Part shown: in pieces, positions 7,338 to 64,000 of the stretch | Layout: every line of letters begins with the position of its first letter | Position numbering within the stretch: the first letter of the stretch is position 1 | IMG/VR virus record: IMGVR_UViG_3300023184_003849 | Span: 32,001 to 96,000 of that record | Strand: one strand, 5' to 3' | DNA from: a virus | Length of the DNA: 64,000 nucleotides | Translations under genes and position numbers: made by a program | Notes under the pieces: model-generated | The model's input: only the letters and a program-made list of their open reading frames with translations | Databases searched by the model: none | What the model was told of the DNA's origin: nothing

Positions 7338-7412
7338 GCCTCTGTAGTATAATGGATAATACACTGGTCTACGAAGCCGGGAATTGTGGTTCAATTCCAT
7401 ACAGAGGCTCCA
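7338..7412 (+). tRNA. tRNA-Arg(ACG)
   Basis: Cloverleaf, CCA. Confidence 0.9.
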
Positions 7413-7417
7413 TTCAT

Positions 7418-7491
7418 GCCCCTTTAGTTTAAAAGTAAAACAGACGCTTGATAAGCGTCAGTCGGAGGAGCGTTACCTCCCGGGGGTACCA
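7418..7491 (+). tRNA. tRNA-Ile(GAT)
   Basis: GACGC-TTGATAA-GCGTC; atypical T loop AGCGTTA; CCA. Confidence 0.85.
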
Positions 7492-7511
7492 GTTTTTAAA
7501 AGGAGAATGCG

Positions 7512-7640
7512 ATGAAACGCAAGATGACCGTCAGGCAACGTAACCCCTTCGTTGCATTGGCTATGAAAAGAAAAGCGGGTAGCCATCGAAAAACCAACAA
7601 AGAGGTTCGTCGATTAGATAAAATGCGAGGCTATAGTTAA
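7512..7640 (+). CDS. Small very basic peptide, 42 aa (MKRKMTVRQRNPFVALAMKRKAGSHRKTNKEVRRLDKMRGYS); possible ribosome-rescue-factor-like
   Basis: AAGGAG SD; translated by hand; stop codon lies inside tRNA-Lys. Confidence 0.7.
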   Translation: MKRKMTVRQRNPFVALAMKRKAGSHRKTNKEVRRLDKMRGYS

Positions 7641-7702
7641 GCGGTTATAACATCACCCTTTTAAGGTGTAAGACCTCGGTTCGAATCCGAGTGGCCCTAC
7701 CA
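7627..7702 (+). tRNA. tRNA-Lys(TTT)
   Basis: Anticodon loop CTTTTAA, T arm CTCGG-TTCGAAT-CCGAG, CCA; one acceptor mismatch. Confidence 0.85.
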
Positions 7703-7803
7703 TATGAAAACACATTGTGGCGAGTTTATGAGTAGCCTGGGAACACGGCAGTAGACCCAATATGTCATAACGTTAGCCTGATATCAGCAATGTGTTTCCA
7801 TAT
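7703..7803 (+). ncRNA. Unknown stem-closed RNA filling the tRNA-Lys/tRNA-His spacer
   Basis: ACCATATGAAAACACATTG(7699-7717)/CAATGTGTTTCCATATGGT(7788-7806), 18 of 19 bp. Confidence 0.5.
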
Positions 7804-13593: not shown

Positions 13594-13669
13594 GCCCCTT
13601 AAACTAATCTAGTGAAAGTGCAGGACTGAAAATCCTGAAAGCCAGGAGCGTAACCTGGAGGGGGCACCA
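13594..13669 (+). tRNA. tRNA-Phe(GAA)
   Basis: CAGGA-CTGAAAA-TCCTG; atypical T loop AGCGTAA; CCA. Confidence 0.88.
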
Positions 13670-14075: not shown

Positions 14076-14291
14076 ATGCGACCAGCAATGATTTGGATTT
14101 TGAGTTTCAGCGTATTGGGTCCTGAGCCGCACTATCAAGAAATACCCAAGTTCACCAGTCGCGAACAATGTGAAGCGGCCCTGCAACAAAAACGTGAAGA
14201 GTATCGTGCCCAGCGTAAACAGATTGCGGGCACTTGTACACAAAGCACTCAAAGTGCGCCCAAACAAACGCCAAGCATGCCGGCTCATTAA
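14076..14291 (+). CDS. Small hypothetical protein
   Basis: ORF track; AGGA SD; F.SREQC motif. Confidence 0.6.
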   Translation: MRPAMIWILSFSVLGPEPHYQEIPKFTSREQCEAALQQKREEYRAQRKQIAGTCTQSTQSAPKQTPSMPAH

Positions 14292-14294
14292 TGG

Positions 14295-14323
14295 TTGACA
14301 AATAACTAAAATGAATATATAAT
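14295..14323 (+). promoter_or_regulatory. Consensus sigma70 promoter of tmRNA
   Basis: TTGACA-17-TATAAT. Confidence 0.85.
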
Positions 14324-14329
14324 AACGAG

Positions 14330-14669
14330 AACAGCGTAAACTGTTATTGAGAAAAGGATTCTGGACGCGGGTGCGAATCCCGCCAGGTCCACCAAAAGAA
14401 TATTTATGATTGAAGCAATTGGATTTTTTGTTACATTGTTAGTTTTAATGTGGATAGCAACAATCTTGGGTGAAATATTTTTTTGATGGGCCTGATATAG
14501 ATTCGACAGGGTCAAGAGTAAAAGTAATGGCGCTCGGCAATGTAGAAGCCGTTAGGGTTGGGGATTCCCGGCCGAAGACACAAAAAACGTAAATGCAAAC
14601 GACGAACAGTTCGCTTTGGCAGCCTAAACACTGCCTAGGGTAGGAAATACCTCGTAACAGAAACCACCA
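14330..14669 (+). ncRNA. ssrA: Circularly permuted two-piece tmRNA; tag (A)ANDEQFALAA
   Basis: Acceptor piece ends CAGGTCCACCA (14394) before the coding piece begins GGGCCTG...GATTCGAC (14488); G3:U70; tag ORF 14595-14627; outer ends approximate. Confidence 0.93.
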
Positions 14670-14691
14670 AGCCCACTTCGGTGGGCTTTTT
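14669..14691 (+). terminator. Intrinsic terminator
   Basis: AAGCCCAC-TTCG-GTGGGCTT-TTT. Confidence 0.9.
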
Positions 14692-14708
14692 CTTGGCTAA
14701 ATATCGGC

Positions 14709-15293
14709 ATGATAGTTTATATTCACGGTGCCAGTGCCACCGCCGAAAGTTTCACACACATAAGAGAATACGTCAGAGAGCATACAGAACTGCCAGATAC
14801 TGCCTTGGAATACAAAAGCGATGATGGGTTTGATAACAATCTTGGTCGCATGATGGGTCAACTGGATGAGGCCGAACGGCTGTTCTTTGTAAGTCACAGC
14901 CTGGGTGGTATCTATGCCTTGTACTTGGCCAATCACTATCGTGACCGCACCCTGGGTGGTGTGAGCCTAAGCACACCCTATGGCGGAAGCAAACAGGCTG
15001 ACTTTGCCAGATACTTTTTGCCATTCAATCAACTCATGAAAGACGTGGGCACTATGAGTGAGCCCATGGCAGAATCTCGTAGACTGCCAGCACCACCTAA
15101 CTGGACCAATGTTGTGACCACTGTGGGCGACAGTCCTTGGATTGTTGAACCCAATGACGGGGTAGTGACCTTGGCCAGCATGAGATATCGCAAAGACTTT
15201 GAACTGGTAGAATTGCCACTCAATCACTATGAAGTTGTGCTGAGCAATCAAGTGGTGCGACTGATCTTGGACCGGATTCAGCAGGCCTTATGA
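14709..15293 (+). CDS. Alpha/beta hydrolase (lipase/esterase-like)
   Basis: IHG, SHSLGG nucleophile elbow, NDGVV, NH. Confidence 0.9.
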   Translation: MIVYIHGASATAESFTHIREYVREHTELPDTALEYKSDDGFDNNLGRMMGQLDEAERLFFVSHSLGGIYALYLANHYRDRTLGGVSLSTPYGGSKQADFARYFLPFNQLMKDVGTMSEPMAESRRLPAPPNWTNVVTTVGDSPWIVEPNDGVVTLASMRYRKDFELVELPLNHYEVVLSNQVVRLILDRIQQAL

Positions 15294-48600: not shown

Positions 48601-51600
48601 TTAGCCTCTAAAAAACTCGGCGGCTTCAGTGTTGGTATATTCCAAACCCACACCATCGTAAGCAGTGGTCGAACCCGCACCGTACCAACTGAGTCCTTGA
48701 CGTACTTGAATTGTGACCTGATAACCTGCTGTGGGTGCTGTGGTAAATTGTACTGTGACTGGGTTGTCTCCAGTGACTGAGTACCCACTGGTTTGCAGAA
48801 GTCCGCCTACATAAACCAAAACAGCCTGCTCGTCAAAAGTGGAATCTTCTTGGCTTAGATCTACATCTGCTGTGAAGATAGTGGTAGTTCCGTCTGCCAA
48901 GGTGTTAGATCCTTCATAATGATCTTGATATTCTACCGGTGCTAAATTGTCTCGGTTGAGATTGTATACAGTGTCACCTGTTGAGTGCAATGTCACAGCA
49001 GTGCCTGCCGTACCTCTCAACAGACTGCTCACTGTGTTGGTGATTGTATCGCGTTGACGATACATGATGCGCTCGCCATTGACTGTTAGAACTCCCCATA
49101 TGTTATTGGCAAGATCAGGTTCCGCAAGTGCACCTGCATCGTTGACATATATTGTGTCCTGGTCAGCATACAATGTTTGAACCAATTCAGTGGTGGTTGC
49201 TGATGTCATTCTATATGTGGCCTGAACGCCACGCATGTCTTGGAAAATACGCAATTCCAAACCAGTTATTGGATCACTTTCAAGCACCACAATGACAGAG
49301 CCATTGGCTGGCGCAGTATTGAAAGTTACTTCGGCCACTGTGCTGTCACTGCTGACTGTGTATTGATCTGGAGATATTACCACATTGTTCACTGCTACCT
49401 CAACGTCCAATGAAGCAGTGGGTGCATAGTAAGGCCCAGTTGTGGAGCCGTCCCCATAAGAAAGGTTGAATTGTCTAGAGTACACACGGAAGTCCAAGGT
49501 GTCAAAGACAGCACCAGGAACAAGTTCTTCTGGAGCATGACTTTCATATGGACCAACAAATTGGCCGCCATCAACATTGATATCTGTGGCTCTGGTTCCC
49601 AAGTAGGGATCTAAAAAACTGCTTTCGTAGATGGCATCAAGTATGGCCGGATCATATGTGGGACGCCCCTCAGGTCCATAACTGATGTTGTCAAAAGGAT
49701 TTATGTCAAAATTCCCTACATCAAATCCAGTGTTTTGTGAAAATGTGGGTGCCAACACCTGCACCCCGGGATAGGCAATTCCATCAATCAACAACGGTAA
49801 ATCCAGTCCTGGTTCATTGGGTCCTGGCACATAGTAACCCATGGTGCGATCAACGCCACTTAGAGCACTGGCTGGAATCAACAGCCAATTGTCAGGATCA
49901 AATTCGGCAGATTGCACAGGCGTACTGTCACCGCTGTTGGCTTGCCATACTCTGTTGTCATAGCGCACTTGAACGCCGTTGTCATAAGCCACGTTGGCTT
50001 GCCAAGTTTCAATTGTCGTGGTGTATTGATAACGATCGTACCGGATAGTGGTGTTGATGCTACGAACCAAATCGTTGCCCATGACAGCCACGATCCGTCC
50101 TCCTGTACCGTTACCACCCGAAACAGTTATGATGGCTGTTGAGGTATAACCTGACCCTGGGTCAGTTATAGTAACAGAACTGATCACGCCTGCGCTGTTG
50201 ACAGTGGCTGTCATTGTGGCCTGAGACACACAGTCTCCTGTGACAGTAAGTTCAGGTGCAACTGTGTAGCCACTGCCGCCGTCGGCAATGACCACATCCT
50301 GAATGCTGAGAGTGTAGTTTTCAAACCAAAAACTGTAAGGTTGAGTTTGCCATAAAGCACTGTCAGGATCAACGTCACTGTAGGTACTGGGATGGCCTGT
50401 TCCTGTGGCTGTACTCAAAGTATAAGGAGTCAACACAGGACTCATGTACTGATTGGGCACTTGTGTGGTATTGTAAAATGCTGGCAAATCAAAGTCAGCC
50501 AGAGTACCTTGATACACATCAAGACCGTTATAGATCAAATTGAATTCACGTATTTGCACATGATAGGGTTTGACTTCTTGAATATAGTTCAACACAAAAT
50601 CTTGATTGTCTCTTTGATATGTTTGATAAGGAATCAACTGACGAATTTTGTGGTCAACGTCAATCAAACTGGTCTTGGTCAGCCACTCAGGTGCTTCAAA
50701 TTCGCTCAGCACAAAGTTGAACATAAGGATCAATGCACGGTTGCGTTCGATCAGTAGATCTCCAATCAACAACTGCTCGTTGATTGCCTGTATAATCTTC
50801 CTGGTTTCTGTCACAGGCTCTTGATCAAAGTGCTGTGCATCAAAAACCTCAACATCAAATCCATAACGACCCAGAGCATAATCCCACAGTTCGGCTAGGA
50901 ACTGTATGGTTCCGTCCTGTAAACCCACTCGATCCCATCCTGTGTTGGTTCTCAAGTATATTTCAAATTTGCCTTGACTGTTGGCAGTAACTTTGACACT
51001 ACTGCCCACAGGAGCCGCTGTCAGACTTAGAGTGTTGAGAGTGGCCACATTGGACACTTCAGCAATGATCTTGACACTTGAATTGTAGCCCGGCAAATAC
51101 CATGTGACATATTCCCAATAGTTCCTAGTGTCATAATTTTGCACACGACTCAAGAACAGAGTAGCAAAAGTCTTGGGAGTGGTTACTGTGTAAATGGTCC
51201 ACAAACCGTTTTGAGTGCTGTCGCTGACCACCAGATACTTGTAGCCTACTGGTACTTGAACTAGATCCTGATAACTGAGTTCTTCGATGTTGGCCACACG
51301 CTTGTTCCAGGCTCCAGTGCCTGTTTGAGGTTCTGGTTCACTGCTGTTCAACAAATTAAAACTGCGAATTTCTGATATGGGATACTGTAGCAACACTGCA
51401 TTCACGTACTGCAAATAATTTTGCAGAGCCAAAAATCTGTTGTCAAACATGCTTTGTCTAGGGCGGAACTGCACACCATAGCGTTGTGCAGGACTCAACC
51501 CAGGATCAGGCACAAGAGCCCCCAATGGATCTGCACCACATAAACTGTCTTGTAATTTTTGATAGAGGTTGTCTGGCAAAAATCCATCAGCACGATCTTG

Positions 51601-54600
51601 AGGCAACAGATCATACTGTACATGCACATTGTTGTCTGTAAATTGTCTGTCAAATTCGATGCTGATCACAGTGTCGCTGGCACTGAGTTGATCCTGCGCA
51701 TTGTATATCGCTGTGGCACTGGGACTTACAAATGCCACATAAGGAATACCACTGCTACGGGGATCAGCAATGTATCGTGCAATACCAGATGGGCTGAGAG
51801 TTTTGCCTATGGTGGTATTGATTGTGGTGATATTTTTGACCCAAAAATAATAGGTGGTTGCAAATACCCCAGCGGTATTCAAACCAGTGGTAACACTGTA
51901 ATTGACTGTGTTTTTGGGCACTCCAGGGCCTGCATAGTTGGCAGGTGGCACTGAACTGGCTGTCCATTGGTATACATCAACACTTGATCCAGGGAACGTT
52001 TGTCCCCAGCGTCGTGCCGCATACACAATGTCATCTTGGTTGGGATCAATAAATCTCACTGAATTAGTATCCCACCAAATTTGACCCACATAGGAAGTTG
52101 CCCAAATTCTTCCATTGTTGTTTTTTGCGCCCACATTGTAGGCAGCAGGATCGACAGCACCAATATAATCGATATTTTGTCGTGCCGCACCCAATATTTT
52201 GCCTTGTAAAGGATCAAAGAAATCCAAAAATGCTGTTTTTGCGCTGGTAATTCTATCATAAGTGAACACACCATTGATCAAAGAAACATCTACCACCGGC
52301 TGTTGTAGGTTGGTCACCCGCCAGGATGGAGAAAGATCAGGATTGTTAAATATGCTCACAGCACCATAATTTTGTGCTATCAATGTGCTGTCACCAAGGT
52401 CATCACCGGGACTGCCCGCCAACAAAATACCATTGGTATAATCAACCGCGGTTCCATAACGGTCCAATTCGCTCACTGTTTGATCATAAATCTGTAGACC
52501 AAATGCAAATTTGCCGGGTGTGGCCGCTGAATCAGTTGCGCTGGCAAAATAATCATATGTGTAAACTGCACCGCTCTGTACCAATGGTCCGACAAATGCT
52601 GTGGTCTTGCTGTCAAAATAAGTGTTGCCACTGTCAAAAGTTGTGGGTCTATACAAATTGCCACGTGGTGCCCCCACTGTGAGTGTGAGGGCACTGGTAT
52701 CAATATTCACAGCACTTCCAAATCCAGCATAGGCCACTGGATACGGGCTCACAATTGTTTGAGTGTAGACAAAAGTTTCAAACACCATGCTGTCAAAAAT
52801 GTTGCCAATCAGGCCAGGAAGCACAGTCAACTTGTTGCCAGACACTGCCGCATCGGTATTTTCAACGCTGATTGTGAGCAAACCAAACCCTTGTGTTCCA
52901 GGCACTGAACCAGCATAGGCAATCACATTGGGTACAGTGCTGTTGTTGATATCCTGTGCCAGTACTGCGGCCCAACTACTGGGTGTCCAGTAGTTGGTAT
53001 CATTCAAAGATGTACCCACTGGCACAGTCTGCACAGCAATCCAAAGACCTTGGTTGTATTCTACTATGGTATCTACAGCAAAAGTCAGCGCACTGTTCCA
53101 AGACACAGGAGCACTCAGTGCCACTTCCATGTTGTTTATTCTAATGGTGTTGCCAGGGTTCAATCTGGCATTGATGGTTGAGGTTGTGACTCCATACACA
53201 CGACTTTGATTTACTTGTCTTTCTACCGCGCCTGCTTGTGGCAGAATACTACCATCTTGCGGAGCACCTGCATAAAGGCTACAGTTGTATCTACAAAGAT
53301 CAACAGCCTGCCCATAATTTGCATTTTCAAAGGCAGCATTGGATCCAATGATTTGTAGCAGACTAAATGTGTTTATTTCAATTTCCAGTATGTCTCCTAC
53401 TGCGGCAGGAGATGCCAGTGTGATCTCGTTGGCACCTGTAACTGTATATTCACTAGATGTACTTCCTGCTGTGTCTGACAAAAATTCATTGTTGAGTATG
53501 ACTGAGGTAGGAGACACCAGTGGTGCATCAGTGGTGTATACTGTTTGTGTATTACTGGTCACAATGAATCTTTGCACCGACCTGTCATACACATATACTG
53601 CTCCTGCGCCAGACACACTGTTATAAGAATCGCCAGAACAGCCCACAATCACTTGCCTGCCATCTGTTGAGCAACTGACTGATTGACCAAATCTTGCATT
53701 GGCTGCTAGGCCTTGTGGTGCCAATGCGTCAACATAAGTGTAGTAACTTTGTGTAATCACATCCACCGTGCCAGTTGGTGCAACAGTAAAGGTTATGTTT
53801 CTGGTGGCAGTGTCAAAAGAGTAATCTATATTAGGCCGTTGAATCGTGCCATTTACTGTGACTTTGAAACTGTAAATATTTTTGGCACTGTACAAGTATT
53901 CATTCAAAGAAAATGTCAAAGTTACACCGTTGCCTGTGAATGTTTTTTCAACTCTTCGACCAATTTTTAACACAAGATCTTGAACTGGAATAGAATTTAA
54001 CACCACCGTGGTGTCTGTCACAGTGTAATCGGTGCTGTAGGTCAACAGTTGATTGTTGAGGACCACAAACAGTTGTTGATACTCTCCTGAATCTATTATG
54101 ACATCATTGTTGTATTGAAACACAAATTGTGTGCCATTTGTTGTGTATTGTACCAGTTGATTTTGTACCTCAACAAGGCTGTAGGCAAACACCTGATTGA
54201 TACCCGGAGCCCCAATGTACATCCAGTGTTCATCAGCACTGACCACAACACTGGTACCAAATTCACTGCCAGAATCTATGTAGGTGTCATCGGGCACGGT
54301 CAACAGATTTGACAACAAGAAAGTGGGACTATTGGGGAATCTATAAATTATGCCCACATACCCAGAATTGGCACTTGAGTCTGATCCAATGCTGTCAGGT
54401 GCACCCACTGCGGCCCATGTTTGACTGCCAATGCTGACGCAGGACCCAAAACCGTATGTGCCAGGATTATCACATTCAATTCTGCTGTTTTGAGTAAAGG
54501 GGTTGCCTGATGTTCTGACAAAAGTGTATACTGCCCCTGACTGTGTGTCTCCGTAACTGGGAGCCCCCACAATAGCATAGACATTTTCGTGTGCTTGATC

Positions 54601-57600
54601 AACAGCCGCGCCAAAATCACTATTGGCCACAGGGGAATCTACTGTGATTTGTCCTGTGGTTTGAAATACCTGTTGCTTTTGAACCACTTGCCACAAACCA
54701 CCACCATTGTCATCTATCCAAACATAGTCGCCAACAAGCAAATTATTAGCATAAGGAAGATCAACAATATCGCTGCCTTGTGCCACTCGTTGACTTTGCA
54801 GAGTAAATGCTGTGCCTGTTCCTGTGGCCACAATTTGATCTATCTGTAAGAAACTGAAAGCAATTGTGACTTGAAAAATATTTGGTACATTTATTACTCG
54901 ATAAACACCATCTACGCCCGAGCCAAAATACTTGATCAACAAAATATTGTCCACTGTCAAACCATGTGCCTGACTGAACGTGACCACCGCAGTGCCATTG
55001 AGATTGCTATTGACCTGTGTGACTTTGCCTTGTGCTTGTGCAGTTCTATAGATGCCCCAGTCATAGTCATTGATCTTGGCAACCCAAACTATGGATCCCA
55101 CGTTGACATTGTTTAGGTCAGCAGCCAGCGACGCAGTATTGTCAATGTTGAACACTGTGATGTCAACATCGTCAATGTTGACGTATCCAGCACTGGGCAA
55201 CACAGTGTCAGTTTTTTTGACCAAAGTGGTGGTTAAAATATCAGGACTGGTTATTTTGTAACTTTGATTCCAGATATCGTTTACTAAAACTGTTTGTTCT
55301 GCCTGGCTGGTTTCTCCAGGCACGACCACTTGTACCAAACTTGGGTTTGAAGTCAATAAGGCTTCATTCAGTCGTATTTCATAGAAACTTCTGTTGGCGT
55401 TGGCACCATATACACCACGTTGCACTGCCCAGTTTTCATAGATCTGATACTCGTTGACTCCACGACCGAGATCAGCAAATGTAAAAATTTCAGCGGCACG
55501 CACAGTGCCTTTGGTGCCAAGAAATTGACGATACAGATTCACTTGACTGGTACTGTCAAGATTAAGGGCAACCATATACTCTCTAGGTTTGAATCCAATC
55601 AAGTTATAGGCAAACAGGTCTTGGTTGAGTTCAAGATTGGCTTGGTACACATTGTATGTGTTGGCCAATTGGTCGCTCTTGTTGGGCAGGTTAGGTAACA
55701 GACCCTGTTGAATCAGAGTGTAGTCACTGCGTGTCCAGTTGTTGAAATCAAACTTGGGTTTGGGCTGTACAATATCAACTGCACTGTAATAAAAGTTTTT
55801 GTACAACACAATTTCACCACGAGCATATTTGCGTAGTGGTTCCCATTCTTTTACATTGTCTTGATTTAATATAAAACCAGGTGCATTGAGTTGACCATTC
55901 CAGTCTTGTGTAACTGATCCAATCAATCTTATTCTACTTTGTCTAGCACCAGTAGCAGGATAGTAAATTAAATCAGCAAATATGCTTTGATTGTCCAACA
56001 CAACCATGTTTTCATAAGATGTAAATTTAATGTGGAAATAGTTTATGGTATCAGCAGTGAGACTTCTCAGAGTAAATGTGTTGTCCAGCCTTTCAACCAC
56101 TAGATCTCGCGTGGCAAATGGAGTACGATCAGCATTGAGAACCATGTTTTCTGTTGTTTGTAATGCAATGCTGTCAACTATGGCCTCAGGTCTTTCCACA
56201 ATTATCTGTGTGGCGCCTGGATTCAAATTTATAATGCTTCCTTCGGCCCACCCTTGACCACTCCAGTACAGAAATTCGCTGACCATTTGATTCCAGTCAA
56301 GCACGTAGCCATTTTCCATTTGATTGAATACCAATCCCTGTTCTTGTAGTAGGGCTCCATAACTCAGTAAGAAATCTGCTACCAAGGTTCTGTTGGTGAA
56401 TGTGTATCCATAAGGTACCTGGACCACTTGGTCGCTGTAACTCACTGGCACACGCACTTCAAACCCGCCAGCACTTATTGTACTCAACACCCCGTTTACC
56501 TTGCTGACCAAGATGTCAAAGTAAGGTTGTATGGTGCTATAGCCGTATACTGCCCACCCATTTGCCGTTGACTGCACAATGATACTGCTGTAGGTCAACT
56601 GATCAAAAGGTACGTTCTTGTAAAACAACAGGTTGTAACTTTCATCGGGCAACAGCAAACTTGAGTTTAGACTGTTGGGGCTGGATTTTTCAGTATAAAT
56701 TTCTAGTAGATTTTTGCCTGTAAAAGCAGCCATTCTGTAGCACAAACGCACGTCAAGATTTTTTAGATCTGCTGTGAGTGCGTCGGTGGAATTGATTCCA
56801 CTTACTCGATTGAAGTCCACAATCCAGTCAATGTAACTGGCCTTGCTGACGCCGTTGCCATAGACTTCAATGCCATTGGCATCCAGTCTGTAACGACCGT
56901 TGTAGAGATATTGACCCAGTTCTGCATTATAGCGATAAAGATCACGATCTGCAAACAGGCTGAAGAATTCTGCTGGACGTGTGAGGGCCAACAGGCGCAT
57001 GATGGCAAATGGATATGCACTACTGGTTCTCCAGGCGTTCTCTACAGGAGCATCGTCACCAACCGCCCAATTTCTCTGGAAGTTGTTGCTGTTGAAATTA
57101 CCAACCACTGTTTCAATGGGCGGTAGTAACGCACCTTCGCTGCCGGATGGAATCACCTGTGTAAGTTGAGGTCTTGCATATTGAGGCAACACGTAAGGTG
57201 CCACAGGGTCTCGCACTAGACCTGCTGCCAAGTCATCCCACAACACCAAGTTGCCTGACGTGTAAGGTGCAGGACCGTATTCTGCTTCCCACCAAGAAGG
57301 CATTACACTGAAACCCAGCATTTCCCAAGGTCTTGTGTTGGGACTTATTGTGTCATAAAAATAGTTATAGATGCCGCGCCAGGCGCCTACGGCCAATGGT
57401 TGATTGGCAGTCAACTTGTTGCTGGCTGTGCTGTAATTCCAGGTGAAACCATTGTTGGGCAGGTAGTCCTGTGACTTGTAGTCCAATTTGTTCCAGCCAA
57501 CCCAGGTCAAAAAGTCTTGACTTTCTATGCCGGTGATTTCCTCCAGGGTATAATCTGTTGTGCGGAACTGTCCAGGCATAACTTCAGTGGCCACGAGGGG

Positions 57601-60600
57601 CACAGGATTACCATCCAGTTTCAAATTGTTGTATATTCTGGTTTCAAATTCCAACAACACTTGATCACGCAAGTCACCAAAAGCCACAGTGATACTTCCA
57701 TCGTGGCCGCGTATGACTCTTCTGGGCGTGACATAAGTGGTATCAATATAGGTCTCGGGCACAAACGCAGGATACAAACCCAGTTTGGTTGGAGTATTGG
57801 GTACAAATGTACCGTATGTGTCAGCATATTCCTGTATCACCACTGTGTCGCCCACTGCTAGTGGTATGGTAATGGTCAACGTTGGTGCATCTGTTGCCAC
57901 CACATATTCAATACCTCTTGTGAGCAGTCGGTCATTCACATACACAGATAATCCCAAATAGTTGGCAGAAGTGTAGTTGTATACTTGTGCAAGGTCAAAA
58001 GTATCTGTGGTAATAAAACTGATCACTGTTGAAGATTGTGTGTACACATTGCTGGCAGGCAACATGTCACTCCAATAAAATGGATTTGCACTGGTACGTC
58101 CAGCCACAAGATCAGTCACTACAGCAGTGAGTATTTCAGGCACAGTCATATTCACATAATCGCCAGACACAGCGGCATTCAACAATTGTGCTTTGTACTT
58201 TTCGTATTCTCTTGAATTAAATTCAAGACTGGCAAATATATTGTAGTTGGCACTGCGCAAAAAATAACCTGCCAATGTCATTGGTGCGCTTTGTTGTAGT
58301 ATGTTCAAGCCAAATGGTATGATATTGCCAAGGTCGCGTGAATTGTTGGCTCCATTTATTTTTCCTGTCAAGCCAATCAAGTTTTGTCCAATGGTATCGT
58401 AGTGGGTCCGTATAGTGCCTAGTGTGAGATTGGCAGCATTCTCATTCAAGGGATTGTTTTCAAGATTGACAGGAACTTGGTAAAAACCCACAGCACTGAC
58501 TTGGTCACTCAAGACCAACACTTCAATTATTTGTCCTGGCACAATTAGGGTGGTAGTAGGAAATGTGATAGTGGTAGTATTAGTTGTTGTTGTATAGGTA
58601 TAAGAGCCTGGATCCTGGAACTCACTGTCCACATAGATCTTGATAGACGGAACTGTGTCTACTGGCAAGGCTGCCACATCCAACAACAAAGGTGTGTTAG
58701 AGGCGTAAGTAAAACTAAACTGCTGATAGATCTTGCTCTTGACTGCGGCCGTTTGCCAACCTATTTCTTTGGTATAAACAGTGCGATTGGCATACTGTCT
58801 TACAAATCCAATGCTGATATTTTTGGTATAACTTATGTCATTTTGCACATAAAGAAATGTGTCAGCATAGAGGTTGTTGTCAAAAACAATATCACCTATG
58901 TTGTTGAGACTGAGATACCGTAGAGGAAAACCCAACACAGTATCGTCTAGACCCGGCCCTAAAGCATAACTAAACAATTTGCTGCCTGCAAATGTACTGC
59001 TAGGATAGGCCACAGGATTGCCAAGACTGTAGCCATTGGTGTCAAATACATCAAACAACGGTGCTTGATTTACTCCAGTTTTTTGTTGTGCCCGAATCCA
59101 TTGCACACCATCATAATAAAAACTTATACCTTGCAAGGTGATGCCGCTGAGACAGACCACTGTTTGGTCAACCAGCACATCAGCATCTGAGGCAGGAACC
59201 AGATTGATCACTGGATATGAGAATGAACTGCCATCGTCACTGAAAGTAACAAATTCTACCACATAAATTTTGTTTCTTACGTCTGGATCGGTGTCACCAG
59301 CAAATATAACTCTAGTTCCCTCAACAAAAGTGTATCCATCTACACCATAACCCACTGTGCCATTTATGGTGCTGAGAGCATCTGTTGTGGCAAAATCAAT
59401 GATGTCCACAGGTTGTTTGCCTTGTGTGCCCATGTGCCATAATCTAGTTCCACCGCGGAATTCCAAAATAGGTCGCTTGGCCCTGTAGGCATTGTCAAGC
59501 ACAGGTATTGTGTTATTGTAAGTGGCTGCGGCTGAAATTACGTCAACATGAAACCAACGATTGCTACGGCTCCAGGCATTCAAGTCTGGTGAGTCCAATG
59601 CCATGGTAAGGTAGTCAGGCACCAAAGGCTGATTCAAACTGGCATCAAAATTACCCACGTCATAAGGTACAGAATCAAAAGGCACGGTGGCACTTTGAGT
59701 GTAGGTTTCAGGTGTGACATAATTGGTGACTGGCAATAATTGAATTGCTGTGCCAACTCCTGACACGTAGTATTCTTGATTGGTATAACTGCTGGGCACA
59801 ACCGGAGCAAGAAATTGCACTTTGAGATTGTTGGTAAACACCACACCATTGGGGCTGGTGTAATTTTTCTTGCCCAAGATATCTGTTGCAACATTGATAG
59901 TGGAACTGTCCGCTTGATCCACTAATCTAATTTGTCCAAAGATGTCTGGATTGGTGCCATCTTGATACCATAACACATCTTTGATTGCAGTCAATAGCGG
60001 AACCTGAGAGATCACACTGCTGGCATCATTGTACCAAGTGGTACTGGCCCACTGTGTGCCAAACAACACGTCAAATTTTGTCAATGTGCTCAGTGTAGAA
60101 ATAGGCAACAAGTTTACAATAGGCAAATTGTTGATGTCATAGGAGTATTGAATCTGCCAAACGTTGTTGGTTGGAAATGTTGGACTGGTTGTGAATACCA
60201 ATGTTTTGTTGTTGAGATTGGTTATGCCATCTATGCCACCATAGTCAGCAATGATGTCGCTGAGATACATGCCGTTCAACTGATCATAACTCAAATCACT
60301 CAGCAGGTCTACATTACCTATGCTGACAAGATCATAATAGAACTGTTGTGCATTTTTGAATGGCACATAAAAAGTCACTGTGCCTAGATCTTCGCCATTG
60401 TTGGTCACTCCCATCACACTTCTACTGCTGATGTTAGGTGCATAAGGCAATTGACCATTGATGCCAGGATCAGTTTGAATCCAGAATGGATTTCCAGTCT
60501 GGCTCACTTCAAAAGTGTAATTGCCCCCACGTACCAGCGTTATGGTAGGATTATTGCCTATTGCTCCACTGAACGTGTATGAGTTGGTACCACGAACAAC

Positions 60601-61068
60601 TGAGAAATTGTCTGTCAAAGGTATTGCTGTGGCAAACACATTTACAGCATCAGGTCCTGCCGGTAACCAATAGTACTGACTGTAGTTTACAAACTTGTCA
60701 AAACTTACAAAGGGATCCCAGGTATAATAATCACTGGTATACAGTCGATCACTGTTGTTGGTCACTGCACCTTGTATTGCCAGAGAGTCTGTGATACCTG
60801 GATAAGTGATGGCATCTTGTATCTCTTCAGTGTCGGGTTTGAGACTGATAACACCAGGCTCCAATTGATAGTTGGCTCGAGTGGCATTGGGTTCTAGCAC
60901 ATAGTAATCATTGGGGTTGACCCCCGGACCAACCCTGCGTCCAACATAACCCTGTACTTTTTCAAATGCAGGTTCTTGAACCAACTGATCAAGCGTGGCA
61001 TTTAAAAATTGTTTGTTAGGAACAGTCTGAAATATTTCAGGTAAAAAATCAACAGTGCGTATGGCCAT
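48601..61068 (-). CDS. Giant 4155-aa virion protein (baseplate/tail, with FG-GAP-like propeller repeats)
   Basis: Uninterrupted ORF; FGxxV...GAP...GAVY repeats; repeated beta-sandwich modules (V.VNG, FT.AP..G); next to the baseplate wedge gene. Confidence 0.85.
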   Translation of the reverse strand: MAIRTVDFLPEIFQTVPNKQFLNATLDQLVQEPAFEKVQGYVGRRVGPGVNPNDYYVLEPNATRANYQLEPGVISLKPDTEEIQDAITYPGITDSLAIQGAVTNNSDRLYTSDYYTWDPFVSFDKFVNYSQYYWLPAGPDAVNVFATAIPLTDNFSVVRGTNSYTFSGAIGNNPTITLVRGGNYTFEVSQTGNPFWIQTDPGINGQLPYAPNISSRSVMGVTNNGEDLGTVTFYVPFKNAQQFYYDLVSIGNVDLLSDLSYDQLNGMYLSDIIADYGGIDGITNLNNKTLVFTTSPTFPTNNVWQIQYSYDINNLPIVNLLPISTLSTLTKFDVLFGTQWASTTWYNDASSVISQVPLLTAIKDVLWYQDGTNPDIFGQIRLVDQADSSTINVATDILGKKNYTSPNGVVFTNNLKVQFLAPVVPSSYTNQEYYVSGVGTAIQLLPVTNYVTPETYTQSATVPFDSVPYDVGNFDASLNQPLVPDYLTMALDSPDLNAWSRSNRWFHVDVISAAATYNNTIPVLDNAYRAKRPILEFRGGTRLWHMGTQGKQPVDIIDFATTDALSTINGTVGYGVDGYTFVEGTRVIFAGDTDPDVRNKIYVVEFVTFSDDGSSFSYPVINLVPASDADVLVDQTVVCLSGITLQGISFYYDGVQWIRAQQKTGVNQAPLFDVFDTNGYSLGNPVAYPSSTFAGSKLFSYALGPGLDDTVLGFPLRYLSLNNIGDIVFDNNLYADTFLYVQNDISYTKNISIGFVRQYANRTVYTKEIGWQTAAVKSKIYQQFSFTYASNTPLLLDVAALPVDTVPSIKIYVDSEFQDPGSYTYTTTTNTTTITFPTTTLIVPGQIIEVLVLSDQVSAVGFYQVPVNLENNPLNENAANLTLGTIRTHYDTIGQNLIGLTGKINGANNSRDLGNIIPFGLNILQQSAPMTLAGYFLRSANYNIFASLEFNSREYEKYKAQLLNAAVSGDYVNMTVPEILTAVVTDLVAGRTSANPFYWSDMLPASNVYTQSSTVISFITTDTFDLAQVYNYTSANYLGLSVYVNDRLLTRGIEYVVATDAPTLTITIPLAVGDTVVIQEYADTYGTFVPNTPTKLGLYPAFVPETYIDTTYVTPRRVIRGHDGSITVAFGDLRDQVLLEFETRIYNNLKLDGNPVPLVATEVMPGQFRTTDYTLEEITGIESQDFLTWVGWNKLDYKSQDYLPNNGFTWNYSTASNKLTANQPLAVGAWRGIYNYFYDTISPNTRPWEMLGFSVMPSWWEAEYGPAPYTSGNLVLWDDLAAGLVRDPVAPYVLPQYARPQLTQVIPSGSEGALLPPIETVVGNFNSNNFQRNWAVGDDAPVENAWRTSSAYPFAIMRLLALTRPAEFFSLFADRDLYRYNAELGQYLYNGRYRLDANGIEVYGNGVSKASYIDWIVDFNRVSGINSTDALTADLKNLDVRLCYRMAAFTGKNLLEIYTEKSSPNSLNSSLLLPDESYNLLFYKNVPFDQLTYSSIIVQSTANGWAVYGYSTIQPYFDILVSKVNGVLSTISAGGFEVRVPVSYSDQVVQVPYGYTFTNRTLVADFLLSYGALLQEQGLVFNQMENGYVLDWNQMVSEFLYWSGQGWAEGSIINLNPGATQIIVERPEAIVDSIALQTTENMVLNADRTPFATRDLVVERLDNTFTLRSLTADTINYFHIKFTSYENMVVLDNQSIFADLIYYPATGARQSRIRLIGSVTQDWNGQLNAPGFILNQDNVKEWEPLRKYARGEIVLYKNFYYSAVDIVQPKPKFDFNNWTRSDYTLIQQGLLPNLPNKSDQLANTYNVYQANLELNQDLFAYNLIGFKPREYMVALNLDSTSQVNLYRQFLGTKGTVRAAEIFTFADLGRGVNEYQIYENWAVQRGVYGANANRSFYEIRLNEALLTSNPSLVQVVVPGETSQAEQTVLVNDIWNQSYKITSPDILTTTLVKKTDTVLPSAGYVNIDDVDITVFNIDNTASLAADLNNVNVGSIVWVAKINDYDWGIYRTAQAQGKVTQVNSNLNGTAVVTFSQAHGLTVDNILLIKYFGSGVDGVYRVINVPNIFQVTIAFSFLQIDQIVATGTGTAFTLQSQRVAQGSDIVDLPYANNLLVGDYVWIDDNGGGLWQVVQKQQVFQTTGQITVDSPVANSDFGAAVDQAHENVYAIVGAPSYGDTQSGAVYTFVRTSGNPFTQNSRIECDNPGTYGFGSCVSIGSQTWAAVGAPDSIGSDSSANSGYVGIIYRFPNSPTFLLSNLLTVPDDTYIDSGSEFGTSVVVSADEHWMYIGAPGINQVFAYSLVEVQNQLVQYTTNGTQFVFQYNNDVIIDSGEYQQLFVVLNNQLLTYSTDYTVTDTTVVLNSIPVQDLVLKIGRRVEKTFTGNGVTLTFSLNEYLYSAKNIYSFKVTVNGTIQRPNIDYSFDTATRNITFTVAPTGTVDVITQSYYTYVDALAPQGLAANARFGQSVSCSTDGRQVIVGCSGDSYNSVSGAGAVYVYDRSVQRFIVTSNTQTVYTTDAPLVSPTSVILNNEFLSDTAGSTSSEYTVTGANEITLASPAAVGDILEIEINTFSLLQIIGSNAAFENANYGQAVDLCRYNCSLYAGAPQDGSILPQAGAVERQVNQSRVYGVTTSTINARLNPGNTIRINNMEVALSAPVSWNSALTFAVDTIVEYNQGLWIAVQTVPVGTSLNDTNYWTPSSWAAVLAQDINNSTVPNVIAYAGSVPGTQGFGLLTISVENTDAAVSGNKLTVLPGLIGNIFDSMVFETFVYTQTIVSPYPVAYAGFGSAVNIDTSALTLTVGAPRGNLYRPTTFDSGNTYFDSKTTAFVGPLVQSGAVYTYDYFASATDSAATPGKFAFGLQIYDQTVSELDRYGTAVDYTNGILLAGSPGDDLGDSTLIAQNYGAVSIFNNPDLSPSWRVTNLQQPVVDVSLINGVFTYDRITSAKTAFLDFFDPLQGKILGAARQNIDYIGAVDPAAYNVGAKNNNGRIWATSYVGQIWWDTNSVRFIDPNQDDIVYAARRWGQTFPGSSVDVYQWTASSVPPANYAGPGVPKNTVNYSVTTGLNTAGVFATTYYFWVKNITTINTTIGKTLSPSGIARYIADPRSSGIPYVAFVSPSATAIYNAQDQLSASDTVISIEFDRQFTDNNVHVQYDLLPQDRADGFLPDNLYQKLQDSLCGADPLGALVPDPGLSPAQRYGVQFRPRQSMFDNRFLALQNYLQYVNAVLLQYPISEIRSFNLLNSSEPEPQTGTGAWNKRVANIEELSYQDLVQVPVGYKYLVVSDSTQNGLWTIYTVTTPKTFATLFLSRVQNYDTRNYWEYVTWYLPGYNSSVKIIAEVSNVATLNTLSLTAAPVGSSVKVTANSQGKFEIYLRTNTGWDRVGLQDGTIQFLAELWDYALGRYGFDVEVFDAQHFDQEPVTETRKIIQAINEQLLIGDLLIERNRALILMFNFVLSEFEAPEWLTKTSLIDVDHKIRQLIPYQTYQRDNQDFVLNYIQEVKPYHVQIREFNLIYNGLDVYQGTLADFDLPAFYNTTQVPNQYMSPVLTPYTLSTATGTGHPSTYSDVDPDSALWQTQPYSFWFENYTLSIQDVVIADGGSGYTVAPELTVTGDCVSQATMTATVNSAGVISSVTITDPGSGYTSTAIITVSGGNGTGGRIVAVMGNDLVRSINTTIRYDRYQYTTTIETWQANVAYDNGVQVRYDNRVWQANSGDSTPVQSAEFDPDNWLLIPASALSGVDRTMGYYVPGPNEPGLDLPLLIDGIAYPGVQVLAPTFSQNTGFDVGNFDINPFDNISYGPEGRPTYDPAILDAIYESSFLDPYLGTRATDINVDGGQFVGPYESHAPEELVPGAVFDTLDFRVYSRQFNLSYGDGSTTGPYYAPTASLDVEVAVNNVVISPDQYTVSSDSTVAEVTFNTAPANGSVIVVLESDPITGLELRIFQDMRGVQATYRMTSATTTELVQTLYADQDTIYVNDAGALAEPDLANNIWGVLTVNGERIMYRQRDTITNTVSSLLRGTAGTAVTLHSTGDTVYNLNRDNLAPVEYQDHYEGSNTLADGTTTIFTADVDLSQEDSTFDEQAVLVYVGGLLQTSGYSVTGDNPVTVQFTTAPTAGYQVTIQVRQGLSWYGAGSTTAYDGVGLEYTNTEAAEFFRG

Positions 61069-64000
61069 TAGATCACTCCACTGCCAGGAGCAGTTCTAAT
61101 ATTTGTGCTGGTCAATGCTGTAATTACTTCTACACTTGAAACTCCGGCACCATTCACAAATATTTCACTAGGCGCACTGCGTATTTCATACAAATCACCA
61201 AAACTCTTTAAAGGGTCCAAAGGAACCAATACCACTGAACTGACCACTCCGCCCATGTTGGAATGAATATAGGCCGCCAGTTCTGAAAAATAAAACGTTT
61301 GTCCAAAATCCCATTTGTCAATACTGAAATAAGTGTTGAGATTGGCTATCACTAGATTTTTTATTTCACTTTCGCTGGCTGTGCTGTCGGCAGCACGAAT
61401 TACCTTGATTGTGGCTTGCAGTTCTTTGGCTGCTTTGGGACCAAACAAGGGTTTGAATACCACGCTGTTCACAATCACATTGTCGCTGATCATCTTGTAG
61501 TCATTGAGTCCCTGATAGGCCGTGCTGAGTTCGTCTATGGTAGGCACAGGAGGTTTGGGCACTGTGTTGGTGGTGTCCTTGATCCAGTTTTGATAGGCAA
61601 AATAATAGGCTTGATTGACCACATACAGATCAATTATGTTGGTTGTGCCTGGGTCAATTCTACTGGTCAGTGGCGCATTGTGTCTGTATTGATAGTAGAG
61701 ACTTTGACGACCGGTTCTGGCCAGCCATTCGTTGCTGACTTCTAGCAAACTGCGCACACCTGTGCCGCTGATGATCAGTTGATAAAAAGCACCCACTTGA
61801 CCGGCCAAGGGTCCAATGCCAATGGTTTGGTTGTAGGCATAGAAAATCTGTCCGGGCACAAACTGTGTCATGACCACTTCTATATCATCTTTGGTAGCAT
61901 ATTCTGAAACCACGCGGCCTGGTTCAACCAACAAATAACGTTGCAGATTGTCAAAGTCCACGGTCTTTTCAAAGAAAACAAGTTTGGTGGTGGGATTTAC
62001 AGTGGGTGCCACTATTTCATCAAAGAAGTCAGGATCATCTGGAACGCCATCTGAATCTGAGTCTTGATAACTCACAAACACCTGATAGTCATCCACAAAA
62101 CCGTCGCTCTCAACTGGTTGTCCCACAATAGCCAATTTGATATCTCCGGGCAAGGGCACATTGGTATCGGGTTGTGAATTGGTTTTGAGAACATTTACAA
62201 AATCAGAGATCACAGTGCCGGTACGGCTATCATATATGCGTTGGTTGGTTTCAAAGAAAAATCTGGTTTGAATCACTGATCCAAACAAATAAAACAGCGC
62301 ACGACTGGTTACTGAATAGGTGGTTCCGTTGCTGACAAATTGTATCAACCAAGAAGCATCTTGATTGGTACCAGATGTTGATTGTGCATTGGTCAAACTG
62401 AATGTGGCATCCACTGCTAGATTTGTGCTTGTGATCACATACCACGTGGCAGTGGTATTGTTGTAGCCAAGACCAAAATTGCGATTCAACAATATCTGAT
62501 TGGTTATATCAGTGATATTGGTTGTGGTGAAATCTGTCACGAACAACGGAATCACTGCTACAGGTATGGCACCAGTAGGCACAAAATTATTCAAAGTCAC
62601 TGGGCCTGTGCCATCAGCAAAATTGCCTTGACCTTGATTGGTTCCGTCCAGCACTATGGCTGTGGGACTGGCCCACAGTATCAGTTTGTCATTGTCTTGA
62701 CTGGGCGTGCCTAGTTTGAGTCTGTTGTTGCCGTCAAAATAGTAACCAGTGGGAGGTGCAAACTGTACCAAAGCACCAACTTGTATGTATTTGCTTGCTG
62801 TACTGCTGAATGTGCCAATGGCAGCAGGATTACCTAGAGAATTGACAAAATAACCAGTGGTCTCGTTGGCCAGTGTAGTACTCTGATTCCAGGTAAAATT
62901 CAAAACTGTTAGATTGGGTCTTGGAAAATTTGCGTAGTAGAATTGATCCAGACCAGTGGACACCAACAGAGGTTGTACACTGTCAGTTATCACTGTGGCA
63001 ATGTCATTGCGTGTTAGCCATGTGAAGTCAAATGTTGGCAGTTGATTTTCTTGCCACAAGGCACCGTCACTGCCAAAAGAATTGGTACTGGAATACTTGC
63101 CTGTGTTGTCTACTAGATCAAGATATCGTGAAGTGCCAATTGAGGCTCGGTTTAGAGCCTTGCTTTTGATAATTGAATTGTACAAGGTAAACGGAAAGTT
63201 GTTGTAGTCTTCACCGTTGACCATGCGGTTCTGTGTGTAGTATCTAGCCGGCGCACGTTGTTTGATTTCGTCTAGAGTCTCTCTAGGTTGTGCATTGCTC
63301 ACAGGCTGTGTGATACCGCAAGTGAAAGTGATTGTTTCCAATTGCCCTGTACGACTCACATAACTGATGGGTATGACCACACTCTGCATTTCTTCTGGAT
63401 TGATAATGTAGGCCAAACCGTTTGAGGCTCGAACATAGGCACGGAACGTGCCCACAGGAATAGTACTGAATACTCCATCTCCGAATGTCAATGTGATTTG
63501 ATCATTGGTTCTGCTGACCACTGAAAAAAGTTTTCTTTGATCAGGTGCCAGTTGTTCTGCGGCTGCCGCATACACACTCTGCACATACTGCCATTCAAAT
63601 TGCACATTTCCCACTGTGTCCAGTTGATACAGCCAACGATCTTCGTTGTTGACACCTTCTATGTTGATGTTTACTGTGCGATTGGCAATGCGTTCGCCAA
63701 GATTGAAATCTTGATTTTGCAACACGCCCTGTTTGAAGTAAAAGAAGTATCCGGTGTTGGCACTGGCAAAGCCCAGTTGATCATTGCGGAACAAGAGGTT
63801 GAAAATACCGTTGGGCAAGGGACTGGGTTCATACACATAGTCTCGCCCCACAGAAGTGGAACTCACTGCCTCAAATGGCATGTTGATGCCGTCTACTGTG
63901 GCTGTGTAAGGAATTACTGGCAAGTAACCAGGCACCAGGTTGATGCTGTATTCAGATGTGTCAACTCCCACAATGGTTTGTTTGGCGCCAGGACGGCCCA
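61068..64000 (-). CDS. Baseplate wedge subunit (T4 gp6-like), 5' truncated by the window edge
   Basis: FGDGVF..P.G, ETLDEIKQRAP..Y.TQNRMV..EDY, WDFG..FYFSEL. Confidence 0.85.
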   Translation of the reverse strand, partial: GRPGAKQTIVGVDTSEYSINLVPGYLPVIPYTATVDGINMPFEAVSSTSVGRDYVYEPSPLPNGIFNLLFRNDQLGFASANTGYFFYFKQGVLQNQDFNLGERIANRTVNINIEGVNNEDRWLYQLDTVGNVQFEWQYVQSVYAAAAEQLAPDQRKLFSVVSRTNDQITLTFGDGVFSTIPVGTFRAYVRASNGLAYIINPEEMQSVVIPISYVSRTGQLETITFTCGITQPVSNAQPRETLDEIKQRAPARYYTQNRMVNGEDYNNFPFTLYNSIIKSKALNRASIGTSRYLDLVDNTGKYSSTNSFGSDGALWQENQLPTFDFTWLTRNDIATVITDSVQPLLVSTGLDQFYYANFPRPNLTVLNFTWNQSTTLANETTGYFVNSLGNPAAIGTFSSTASKYIQVGALVQFAPPTGYYFDGNNRLKLGTPSQDNDKLILWASPTAIVLDGTNQGQGNFADGTGPVTLNNFVPTGAIPVAVIPLFVTDFTTTNITDITNQILLNRNFGLGYNNTTATWYVITSTNLAVDATFSLTNAQSTSGTNQDASWLIQFVSNGTTYSVTSRALFYLFGSVIQTRFFFETNQRIYDSRTGTVISDFVNVLKTNSQPDTNVPLPGDIKLAIVGQPVESDGFVDDYQVFVSYQDSDSDGVPDDPDFFDEIVAPTVNPTTKLVFFEKTVDFDNLQRYLLVEPGRVVSEYATKDDIEVVMTQFVPGQIFYAYNQTIGIGPLAGQVGAFYQLIISGTGVRSLLEVSNEWLARTGRQSLYYQYRHNAPLTSRIDPGTTNIIDLYVVNQAYYFAYQNWIKDTTNTVPKPPVPTIDELSTAYQGLNDYKMISDNVIVNSVVFKPLFGPKAAKELQATIKVIRAADSTASESEIKNLVIANLNTYFSIDKWDFGQTFYFSELAAYIHSNMGGVVSSVVLVPLDPLKSFGDLYEIRSAPSEIFVNGAGVSSVEVITALTSTNIRTAPGSGVI

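Follow-up and report, generated by a model that had tools for sequence, protein, structure and literature searches.

Why would a phage gene have its stop codon inside a tRNA? In a 64,000-nucleotide stretch of DNA (hereafter the window), which spans bases 32001-96000 of a 121,846-bp IMG/VR virus record with a CheckV completeness of 35%, a short open reading frame (ORF) runs into a tRNA-Lys gene and terminates there. The original prediction for this locus was that tRNA processing might strip the ORF of its stop codon and yield a non-stop mRNA for a ribosome rescue factor. There is precedent for such a strategy. As described in parts of PMC6881298, the mRNA for ArfA is a non-stop mRNA and trans-translation keeps its product at a low level, and BrfA, which carries a rho-independent terminator inside its coding region, builds up only when trans-translation is absent. 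The question raised by the locus is thus whether its arrangement reflects a gene designed to lack a stop codon, or an ordinary gene that has been packed tightly against its neighbor.

A small coding gene that ends inside tRNA-Lys

The sequence, ARAGORN and Rfam agree exactly with the initial description of a basic 42-residue ORF with a strong Shine-Dalgarno (SD) sequence and a TAA inside tRNA-Lys (Table 1). Specifically, the ORF begins with the ATG at position 7512, and its TAA (7638-7640) falls within the 14 nt that it shares with the tRNA gene. The cloverleaf of the latter presents a UUU anticodon, which identifies it as tRNA-Lys(UUU). On the other side, the ATG lies 19 nt past the encoded CCA (7490-7492) of a tRNA-like gene.

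Table 1. Positions of the peptide gene, its flanking elements and the phage tmRNA in the window
Feature	Position	Strand	Sequence, basis or remark
ORF, 42 codons	7512-7640	+	MKRKMTVRQRNPFVALAMKRKAGSHRKTNKEVRRLDKMRGYS; codons 1-38 correspond to the family domain
Codons 39-42 and TAA of the ORF	within 7512-7640	+	tRNA sequence read as protein
Shine-Dalgarno sequence AAGGAG	7500-7505	+	6-nt spacer to the ATG
Conserved core	7539-7613	+	RNPFVALAMKRKAGSHRKTNKEVRR; family comparison
tRNA-Lys(UUU), CCA encoded	7627-7702	+	ARAGORN; Rfam RF00005 tRNA, 59.4 bits
tRNA-like gene upstream of the ORF	7418-7492	+	Rfam tRNA match at 7418-7488, 43.9 bits; no ARAGORN call
Predicted tRNA-punctuated mini-mRNA	7493-7626	+	19-nt leader with SD, 38 codons and 1 nt, no stop; boundaries expected from tRNA processing rules
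Predicted RNase P cleavage site (tRNA -1/+1)	7626-7627	+	after the first base of codon 39; tRNA 5′ end from ARAGORN and Rfam, cleavage expected from the pre-tRNA rule
Phage tmRNA, betaproteobacterial type, tag ANDEQFALAA	14281-14718	+	ARAGORN 14302-14718; Rfam beta_tmRNA RF01850, 119 bits, 14281-14693

Both flanking elements have unusual features when examined by eye. The acceptor stem of tRNA-Lys carries a G1-U72 wobble and an A2-C71 mismatch, and the G1-U72 pair (GGG...CCT-A-CCA) also appears in the tRNA-Lys of several relatives. The upstream tRNA-like gene has an Ile-GAU anticodon loop and an odd T-arm, GGAGG-AGCGTTA-CCTCC. Similar arms reading 'GGATCGTTACC' occur in tRNA-like elements located 3′ of the peptide gene at four related loci (L023, L024, L033 and L133).

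No sigma-70-like promoter was found directly upstream of the ORF in the window, whereas some relatives (L010 and L023) instead carry a consensus TTGACA-17-TATAAT just upstream of theirs, as read from the sequence. RNA-library runs, all available as contigs, contain at most 0.19 of the sampled words, and contigs from four of them match the window in this region only at 7410-7491 and 7629-7716. These matches come from other genomic contexts and leave the ORF uncovered.

The ORF is nonetheless a real, coding gene, because its in-frame pN/pS is low, its SD is kept and its family is large. Among 81 distinct 75-nt cores (3240 pairs), pN/pS is 0.27 in frame versus 1.5 and 2.1 in the shifted frames, and entropy at third codon positions is 35.9 versus 17.4 and 11.8 elsewhere. 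An AGGAG-type SD and an ATG are conserved at the same place in relatives. A word-based search yielded 15 proteins with the invariant core RNPFV.LA..RKAGSH.K..K..R, and a hidden Markov model (HMM) search of 1.84 billion representatives expanded the family to 584 clusters at E<=1e-3, with 80 at E<=1e-10. These matches nearly always cover residues 1-38, and the tails that follow, from 3 to about 150 residues in length, are unrelated. Positions R10, N11, V14, K21, A22, G23, H25, K27, K30 and R33 are invariant or nearly so.

Existing collections hold no name for this family. A Pfam and NCBIfam profile search with the peptide (hmmscan, E<=10) returned no family, and seven bacterial members likewise gave no match to either collection. 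The ESM Atlas offered only unnamed clusters except for its nearest named entry, DUF7230 (PF23876), at 0.85; membership in DUF7230 was rejected when none of 73 diverse family members matched its profile at E<=1. A 720-aa protein (P0060) was also discarded as a relative, since it contains AT-hook-like repeats of KRKAGRPRKSNK, scores through six short stretches and constitutes a compositional false positive. DNA searches of cultured phages, at both near and distant settings, produced no match, and the only relatives identified by tblastn were weak ones, in Acidovorax phage ACP17 and Variovorax phage V45v66 (loci L001 and L002). Neither has a tRNA at this place: the Variovorax phage sequence ends at an ordinary stop, and the Acidovorax phage frame runs into the next gene. 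An AlphaFold2 model of the family alignment, which is small and carries little information, contains two short helices (residues 12-19 and 29-37), with a mean pLDDT of 72 and a pTM of 0.29.

Given that the ORF is joined directly to a tRNA-Lys at the 5′ end of the latter and that 7 of its 38 family-domain codons specify lysine (six of them AAA), one could imagine that it serves as a cis-acting leader, whose translation merely modulates the folding, processing or yield of tRNA-Lys while the peptide itself is incidental. We regard this as very improbable. Strong purifying selection acts on the amino-acid sequence, and the invariant residues are common to chromosomal bacterial homologues that have no tRNA nearby.

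The junction with tRNA-Lys is conserved, the stop codon is not

If the overlap between the ORF and the tRNA has functional importance, how is it maintained in relatives? We compared 120 loci, comprising the window, 31 viral contigs, 8 contigs of GTDB genomes and 80 metagenome contigs, which collapse to 86 distinct junctions. ARAGORN places a tRNA-Lys(UUU) 3′ of the ORF in 62 of these. In this set, the tRNA begins 54-66 nt past the first RKAGSH codon (123 nt in one case), and cleavage at the tRNA 5′ end is predicted to leave peptides of 35-43 aa. The original prediction would have been undermined if homologs usually stopped before the tRNA. None of the 62 does so, and the first in-frame stop appears anywhere from 4 to 198 nt past the tRNA start.

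The position of this stop is otherwise highly variable. Depending on lineage, the ORF enters the tRNA 5′ end in reading phase 0, 1 or 2, and 18 different stop offsets are present. The tails encoded past the junction are translated tRNA sequence, such as GIAQLVEQ, ..TFNP.. and ..RLLTDRQGFDSLHPHQ, which extend to at least 26 residues and are not conserved. Thus, the feature that has been conserved is the junction with the tRNA and not the stop codon.

Three further junctions are interrupted by contig ends, and the other 21 have no tRNA-Lys called by ARAGORN. Several of these 21 carry a long, near-perfect hairpin directly past the core, with the stop codon in it or behind it. The hairpin holds the stop in its loop at L016, has stems of about 25 bp at L095 and L126, comprises 22 bp at L121, and comprises 15 bp followed by another tRNA at L101, L114 and L122. 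One junction counted among the 62 (L074) combines the two arrangements, with a hairpin followed by tRNA-Lys. At L033/L034 and L133, a tRNA-Lys-like element with an unusual T-arm is present without an ARAGORN call, and L024-L026 keep a degenerate 5′ half of tRNA-Lys. Three junctions (L023, L036 and L092) look like deletions, and no convincing structure was found at the junctions of L073, L042, L119/L123 and L129.

The nearly exclusive partnership with tRNA-Lys may be due to simple inheritance from one ancestral fusion.

Relatives in bacterial chromosomes

Members of the family also reside in bacterial genomes. Profile A3 finds matches, one copy each, in 71 of 401 sampled genomes of Burkholderiales, the order that contains the Rhodocyclaceae metagenome-assembled genome (MAG) of locus L043; the 401 include four genomes flagged as unpublished (G337, G515, G604 and G689), none of which is a carrier. 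Profile A2 finds matches in 8 of 300 sampled genomes of the class. The neighbors of L043, which encode an NMT1-like binding protein and a PAS histidine kinase, indicate an ordinary chromosome. Within 1.5 kb on either side, no neighbor is conserved across the bacterial loci, and the largest shared set is found at 5 of 35 loci.

These relatives provide a further view of how the gene ends. We scored 36 bacterial loci for a single hairpin that is directly followed by a T-run and that ends before the stop codon, and used as controls 82 non-overlapping ORFs, each 150 aa or longer, taken from these loci. At a threshold of -12 kcal/mol or lower, 13 of the 36 loci contain an internal terminator versus 9 of the 82 control ORFs (Fisher p=0.004, uncorrected for relatedness). 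At -15 kcal/mol or lower, the corresponding numbers are 11 of 36 versus 6 of 82 (p=0.003, again uncorrected for relatedness). The control is imperfect, with 7-11% of control ORFs scoring positive, and the enrichment is thus 4- to 5-fold. The terminator-bearing members have long tails that read ..FF.. or ..FFW.. from the T-run, and L043 has a -29 kcal/mol hairpin, without a T-run, that ends 4 nt before its stop. An ordinary stop is present in 22-23 of the 36 members, located 6-18 residues past the core and often preceded by a tail that is acidic. Among the bacterial relatives, the stop-less layout therefore recurs and shows enrichment, but it is not universal.

Taken together, the phage and bacterial loci reveal a gene that is systematically without a stop of its own and ends in a tRNA 5′ end, in a long hairpin or in an internal terminator, though with exceptions. 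The part of the original prediction that proposed a programmed non-stop message, as for arfA and brfA, is strengthened by this pattern, and it is qualified by the bacterial relatives that stop normally.

These exceptions are among the reasons to consider that the peptide is simply a small basic protein, such as an accessory that binds ribosomes or RNA, with a normal stop that happens to fall inside a tRNA. The overlap would then result from tight packing of the tRNA array, whose members are 1-10 nt apart, and the bacterial terminators would be incidental, much like those detected in the control ORFs. The ordinary stop of the Variovorax phage relative and the weak Acidovorax phage match that reads into the next gene also fit this explanation. 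It is difficult, however, to reconcile an ordinary protein with the absence of any stop before tRNA-Lys in 62 junctions, despite the rebuilding of the junction in three phases with so many stop offsets. Moreover, long unconserved tails made of translated tRNA would be an odd feature of such a protein, and hairpins or terminators occur at the equivalent place in relatives that have no tRNA. We consequently judge the ordinary-protein explanation to be unlikely, and consider it quite probable that the stop-less design is real and has been selected.

Bacterial carriers also permit a look at the rescue systems with which the peptide might coexist. We used the number of RF-1-domain matches per genome as a proxy for ArfB, as three or more matches likely mean that ArfB is present. 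By hand count, genomes with two or fewer matches make up 34 of the 71 carriers versus 110 of the 330 non-carriers (odds ratio 1.8, Fisher p=0.03, uncorrected for relatedness, genome size and completeness), which is a weak hint of an association. Separately, a hand tally of the 30 order-level loci L153-L182 places 7 of the 9 loci with an internal terminator or strong hairpin (small numbers) in genomes with at least three RF-1-domain matches, and 11 of the 21 ordinary-stop loci in genomes with two or fewer. The ArfA profile PF03889 found nothing in six family carriers tested. However, PF03889 matches only 3 of 300 and 3 of 401 sampled genomes and is rare in the likely host order, and its absence from the carriers is therefore uninformative.

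A proposed mechanism for conditional expression

RNase P cleaves every pre-tRNA at +1, and ribosomes that arrive at a 3′ end without a stop codon are substrates for tmRNA-SmpB. On this basis, we propose that the gene encodes a trans-acting basic peptide of about 38 residues and is built such that its mature message has no stop codon. The ORF would be transcribed within a tRNA polycistron from which processing excises the flanking tRNAs on both sides. The RNase P cut at 7626/7627 would leave a 134-nt mRNA that ends one base past codon 38, and ribosomes would stall at this 3′ end. The peptide would be tagged and degraded as long as trans-translation, carried out by host SmpB together with the tmRNA of host or phage, has capacity to spare. 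By analogy with ArfA and BrfA, untagged peptide should accumulate once trans-translation is saturated. If a ribosome were faster than the RNase P cut, it would reach the stop within the tRNA and terminate normally there.

What might the accumulated peptide do? Its activity would most likely resemble that of ArfA, BrfA or ArfT, with the KRKAGSHRKTNKxxRR half probing the empty mRNA channel of a stalled ribosome and the NPFVALA patch perhaps helping to recruit a release factor. By analogy with these factors, a role of the product in the rescue of stalled ribosomes is a tentative assignment, to which we give a little less than an even chance. We lean slightly toward the combined reading, namely the stop-less gene of a tmRNA-gated, rescue-type factor, if the term is allowed to include a more loosely defined tmRNA-gated ribosome-binding factor.

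A factor that is gated by tmRNA but performs another job would be encoded by the same stop-less design. It could be a translation brake, a hibernation signal, or a protector or helper of tRNA-Lys, which is a frequent target of anticodon nucleases. Such a job might account for the choice of tRNA-Lys(UUU) as partner in 62 of 86 junctions, which the rescue model leaves unexplained, and for the absence of homology to any known rescue factor. Yet the bacterial members are not beside tRNA-Lys or any conserved neighbor, and ArfA and BrfA, the two known families with this layout, are both rescue factors as presented in parts of PMC6881298. A different job for the gated peptide thus appears distinctly unlikely, and rescue remains the activity that we favor for the model outlined above.

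Phage context, tmRNA and host

The window carries 25 tRNA genes called by ARAGORN, and a further Rfam tRNA match (44.5 bits) without an ARAGORN call is present at 13594-13666. A 4155-aa open reading frame at 48601-61068 on the minus strand is followed by one of 967 aa at 61068-63971. The phage also encodes its own tmRNA, and it had been suggested that the peptide is coupled to this RNA. Other relatives have a tmRNA as well, as called by ARAGORN in G302, G304 and G305 and by RF01850 in G303 (84 bits). However, G306 and G307 (96% and 90% complete, respectively) yielded no tmRNA match, although both carry the peptide gene. Coupling is therefore not obligatory, and the phage tmRNA is a frequent context of the gene rather than a required partner. 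The phage record, at 35% completeness, yielded no match for SmpB, an RF-1 domain or RNase III.

The host is likely to be a betaproteobacterium, because the tmRNA is of the betaproteobacterial type and because MAG contigs that carry the ORF-tRNA-Lys unit are labelled Rhodoferax, Burkholderia or Pseudomonadota. According to portions of PMC11633108, every proteobacterium studied requires either trans-translation or an alternative factor, and among 1000 Betaproteobacteria arfA is found in 37 (Table 1 of that source) and arfB in 709.

[quoted passage not shown] We consider it possible, if somewhat doubtful, that the peptide represents a further, independently evolved family of this kind, which is native to roughly one fifth of Burkholderiales, an order in which ArfA is seldom found, and which large freshwater phages have acquired. 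In these phages the internal terminator would have been swapped for a tRNA 5′ end, such that RNase P makes the gene a sensor of trans-translation capacity. Together with the tRNAs and the phage's own tmRNA, the gene would form a two-tier rescue module. If true, the family, which occurs in many large phages and in 71 of 401 sampled Burkholderiales genomes, would go some way toward closing the gap in betaproteobacterial rescue factors. Phages would then handle ribosome rescue by means of a protein in addition to tmRNA, and cleavage by RNase P at a tRNA 5′ end would be a third way to produce a programmed non-stop mRNA. At its length, the peptide is accessible to chemical synthesis.

Comparison with known rescue factors

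The similarity of the peptide to ArfA had been described as only compositional, and sequence comparisons agree: no homology is detectable by Pfam, NCBIfam, PF03889, hhalign or PDB profile searches. The PF03889 profile has no match in the phage record, and none of 73 diverse family members matches it. An hhalign comparison of 167 family sequences with 124 ArfA sequences gives a probability of 0.1%. The family profile has no matches at E<=10 among all PDB chains, in a copy of the database in which ArfA chains are present and which presumably also holds BrfA chains.

Regardless of this lack of sequence kinship, there is a resemblance to ArfA (PF03889, YhdL), an RF2-dependent factor of Gammaproteobacteria and some Betaproteobacteria, at the level of design. 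Each is a small basic peptide, and the message, which in the case of ArfA ends before the stop codon, would do so for the phage peptide as well. The truncating devices differ, in that ArfA genes use a hairpin, an RNase III site or a terminator inside the ORF, and the phage peptide gene would use the 5′ end of a tRNA; ArfA examples L052 and L054 show such hairpins inside the gene. At 52-55 aa, mature ArfA, as described in portions of PMC6299226, is longer than the 35-43 aa predicted for the family. By eye only, the two are also alike in having a hydrophobic patch followed by a K/R-rich G-S-(Y/H) stretch, KGKGSY in ArfA and KRKAGSH in the family, although the ArfA motif KGKGS(Y) itself does not occur in the family, whose consensus is [RK]KAG[ST]H. 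The tail of E. coli ArfA reads ..HFF.., similar to the ..FF.. of the terminator-bearing bacterial members. A canonical ArfA gene (L053:74-335; PF03889, 36.9 bits) encodes 38 aa, has its own TGA and is followed 6 nt later by a tRNA-His, which shows that a tRNA can be the immediate downstream neighbor of ArfA proper, too.

The other known factors each share one aspect of the family's organization. BrfA (YqkK) of Bacillus subtilis comes from a different phylum, but its layout, with a terminator inside the ORF as given in parts of PMC6881298, is also that of 13 of the 36 bacterial members. Portions of PMC6299226 describe ArfT as a basic protein of 40 aa that is found only in Francisella, has a KGKGS-like stretch near its C terminus, uses an ordinary stop and is not so regulated. 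Judged by this description, it is comparable to the bacterial members with ordinary stops. With regard to gene layout only, a non-stop message as in ArfA and BrfA regulation would fit the lack of a prior stop at 62 of 62 tRNA-Lys junctions, the hairpins of some relatives and the internal terminators of 13 of the 36 bacterial members. The gene is thus laid out like those for ArfA and BrfA, presumably with RNase P as the truncating enzyme.

A literature search of full texts, evaluated by titles and the starts of abstracts, found no phage or bacterial peptide gene that ends in a tRNA as a non-stop device. A parallel exists in mitochondria, where, under the tRNA punctuation model, the removal of flanking tRNAs from the transcript sets the ends of mRNAs. 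Parts of PMC9674279 and PMC8348895 indicate that mRNA ends set in this manner can give rise to non-stop mRNAs. Whereas punctuation by tRNAs is general in mitochondria, in the phage it would constitute a dedicated switch for one small gene. The programmed non-stop gene of the ArfA and BrfA type is known; what is new here is a protein family that is absent from Pfam and NCBIfam, and the device by which its message would be truncated.
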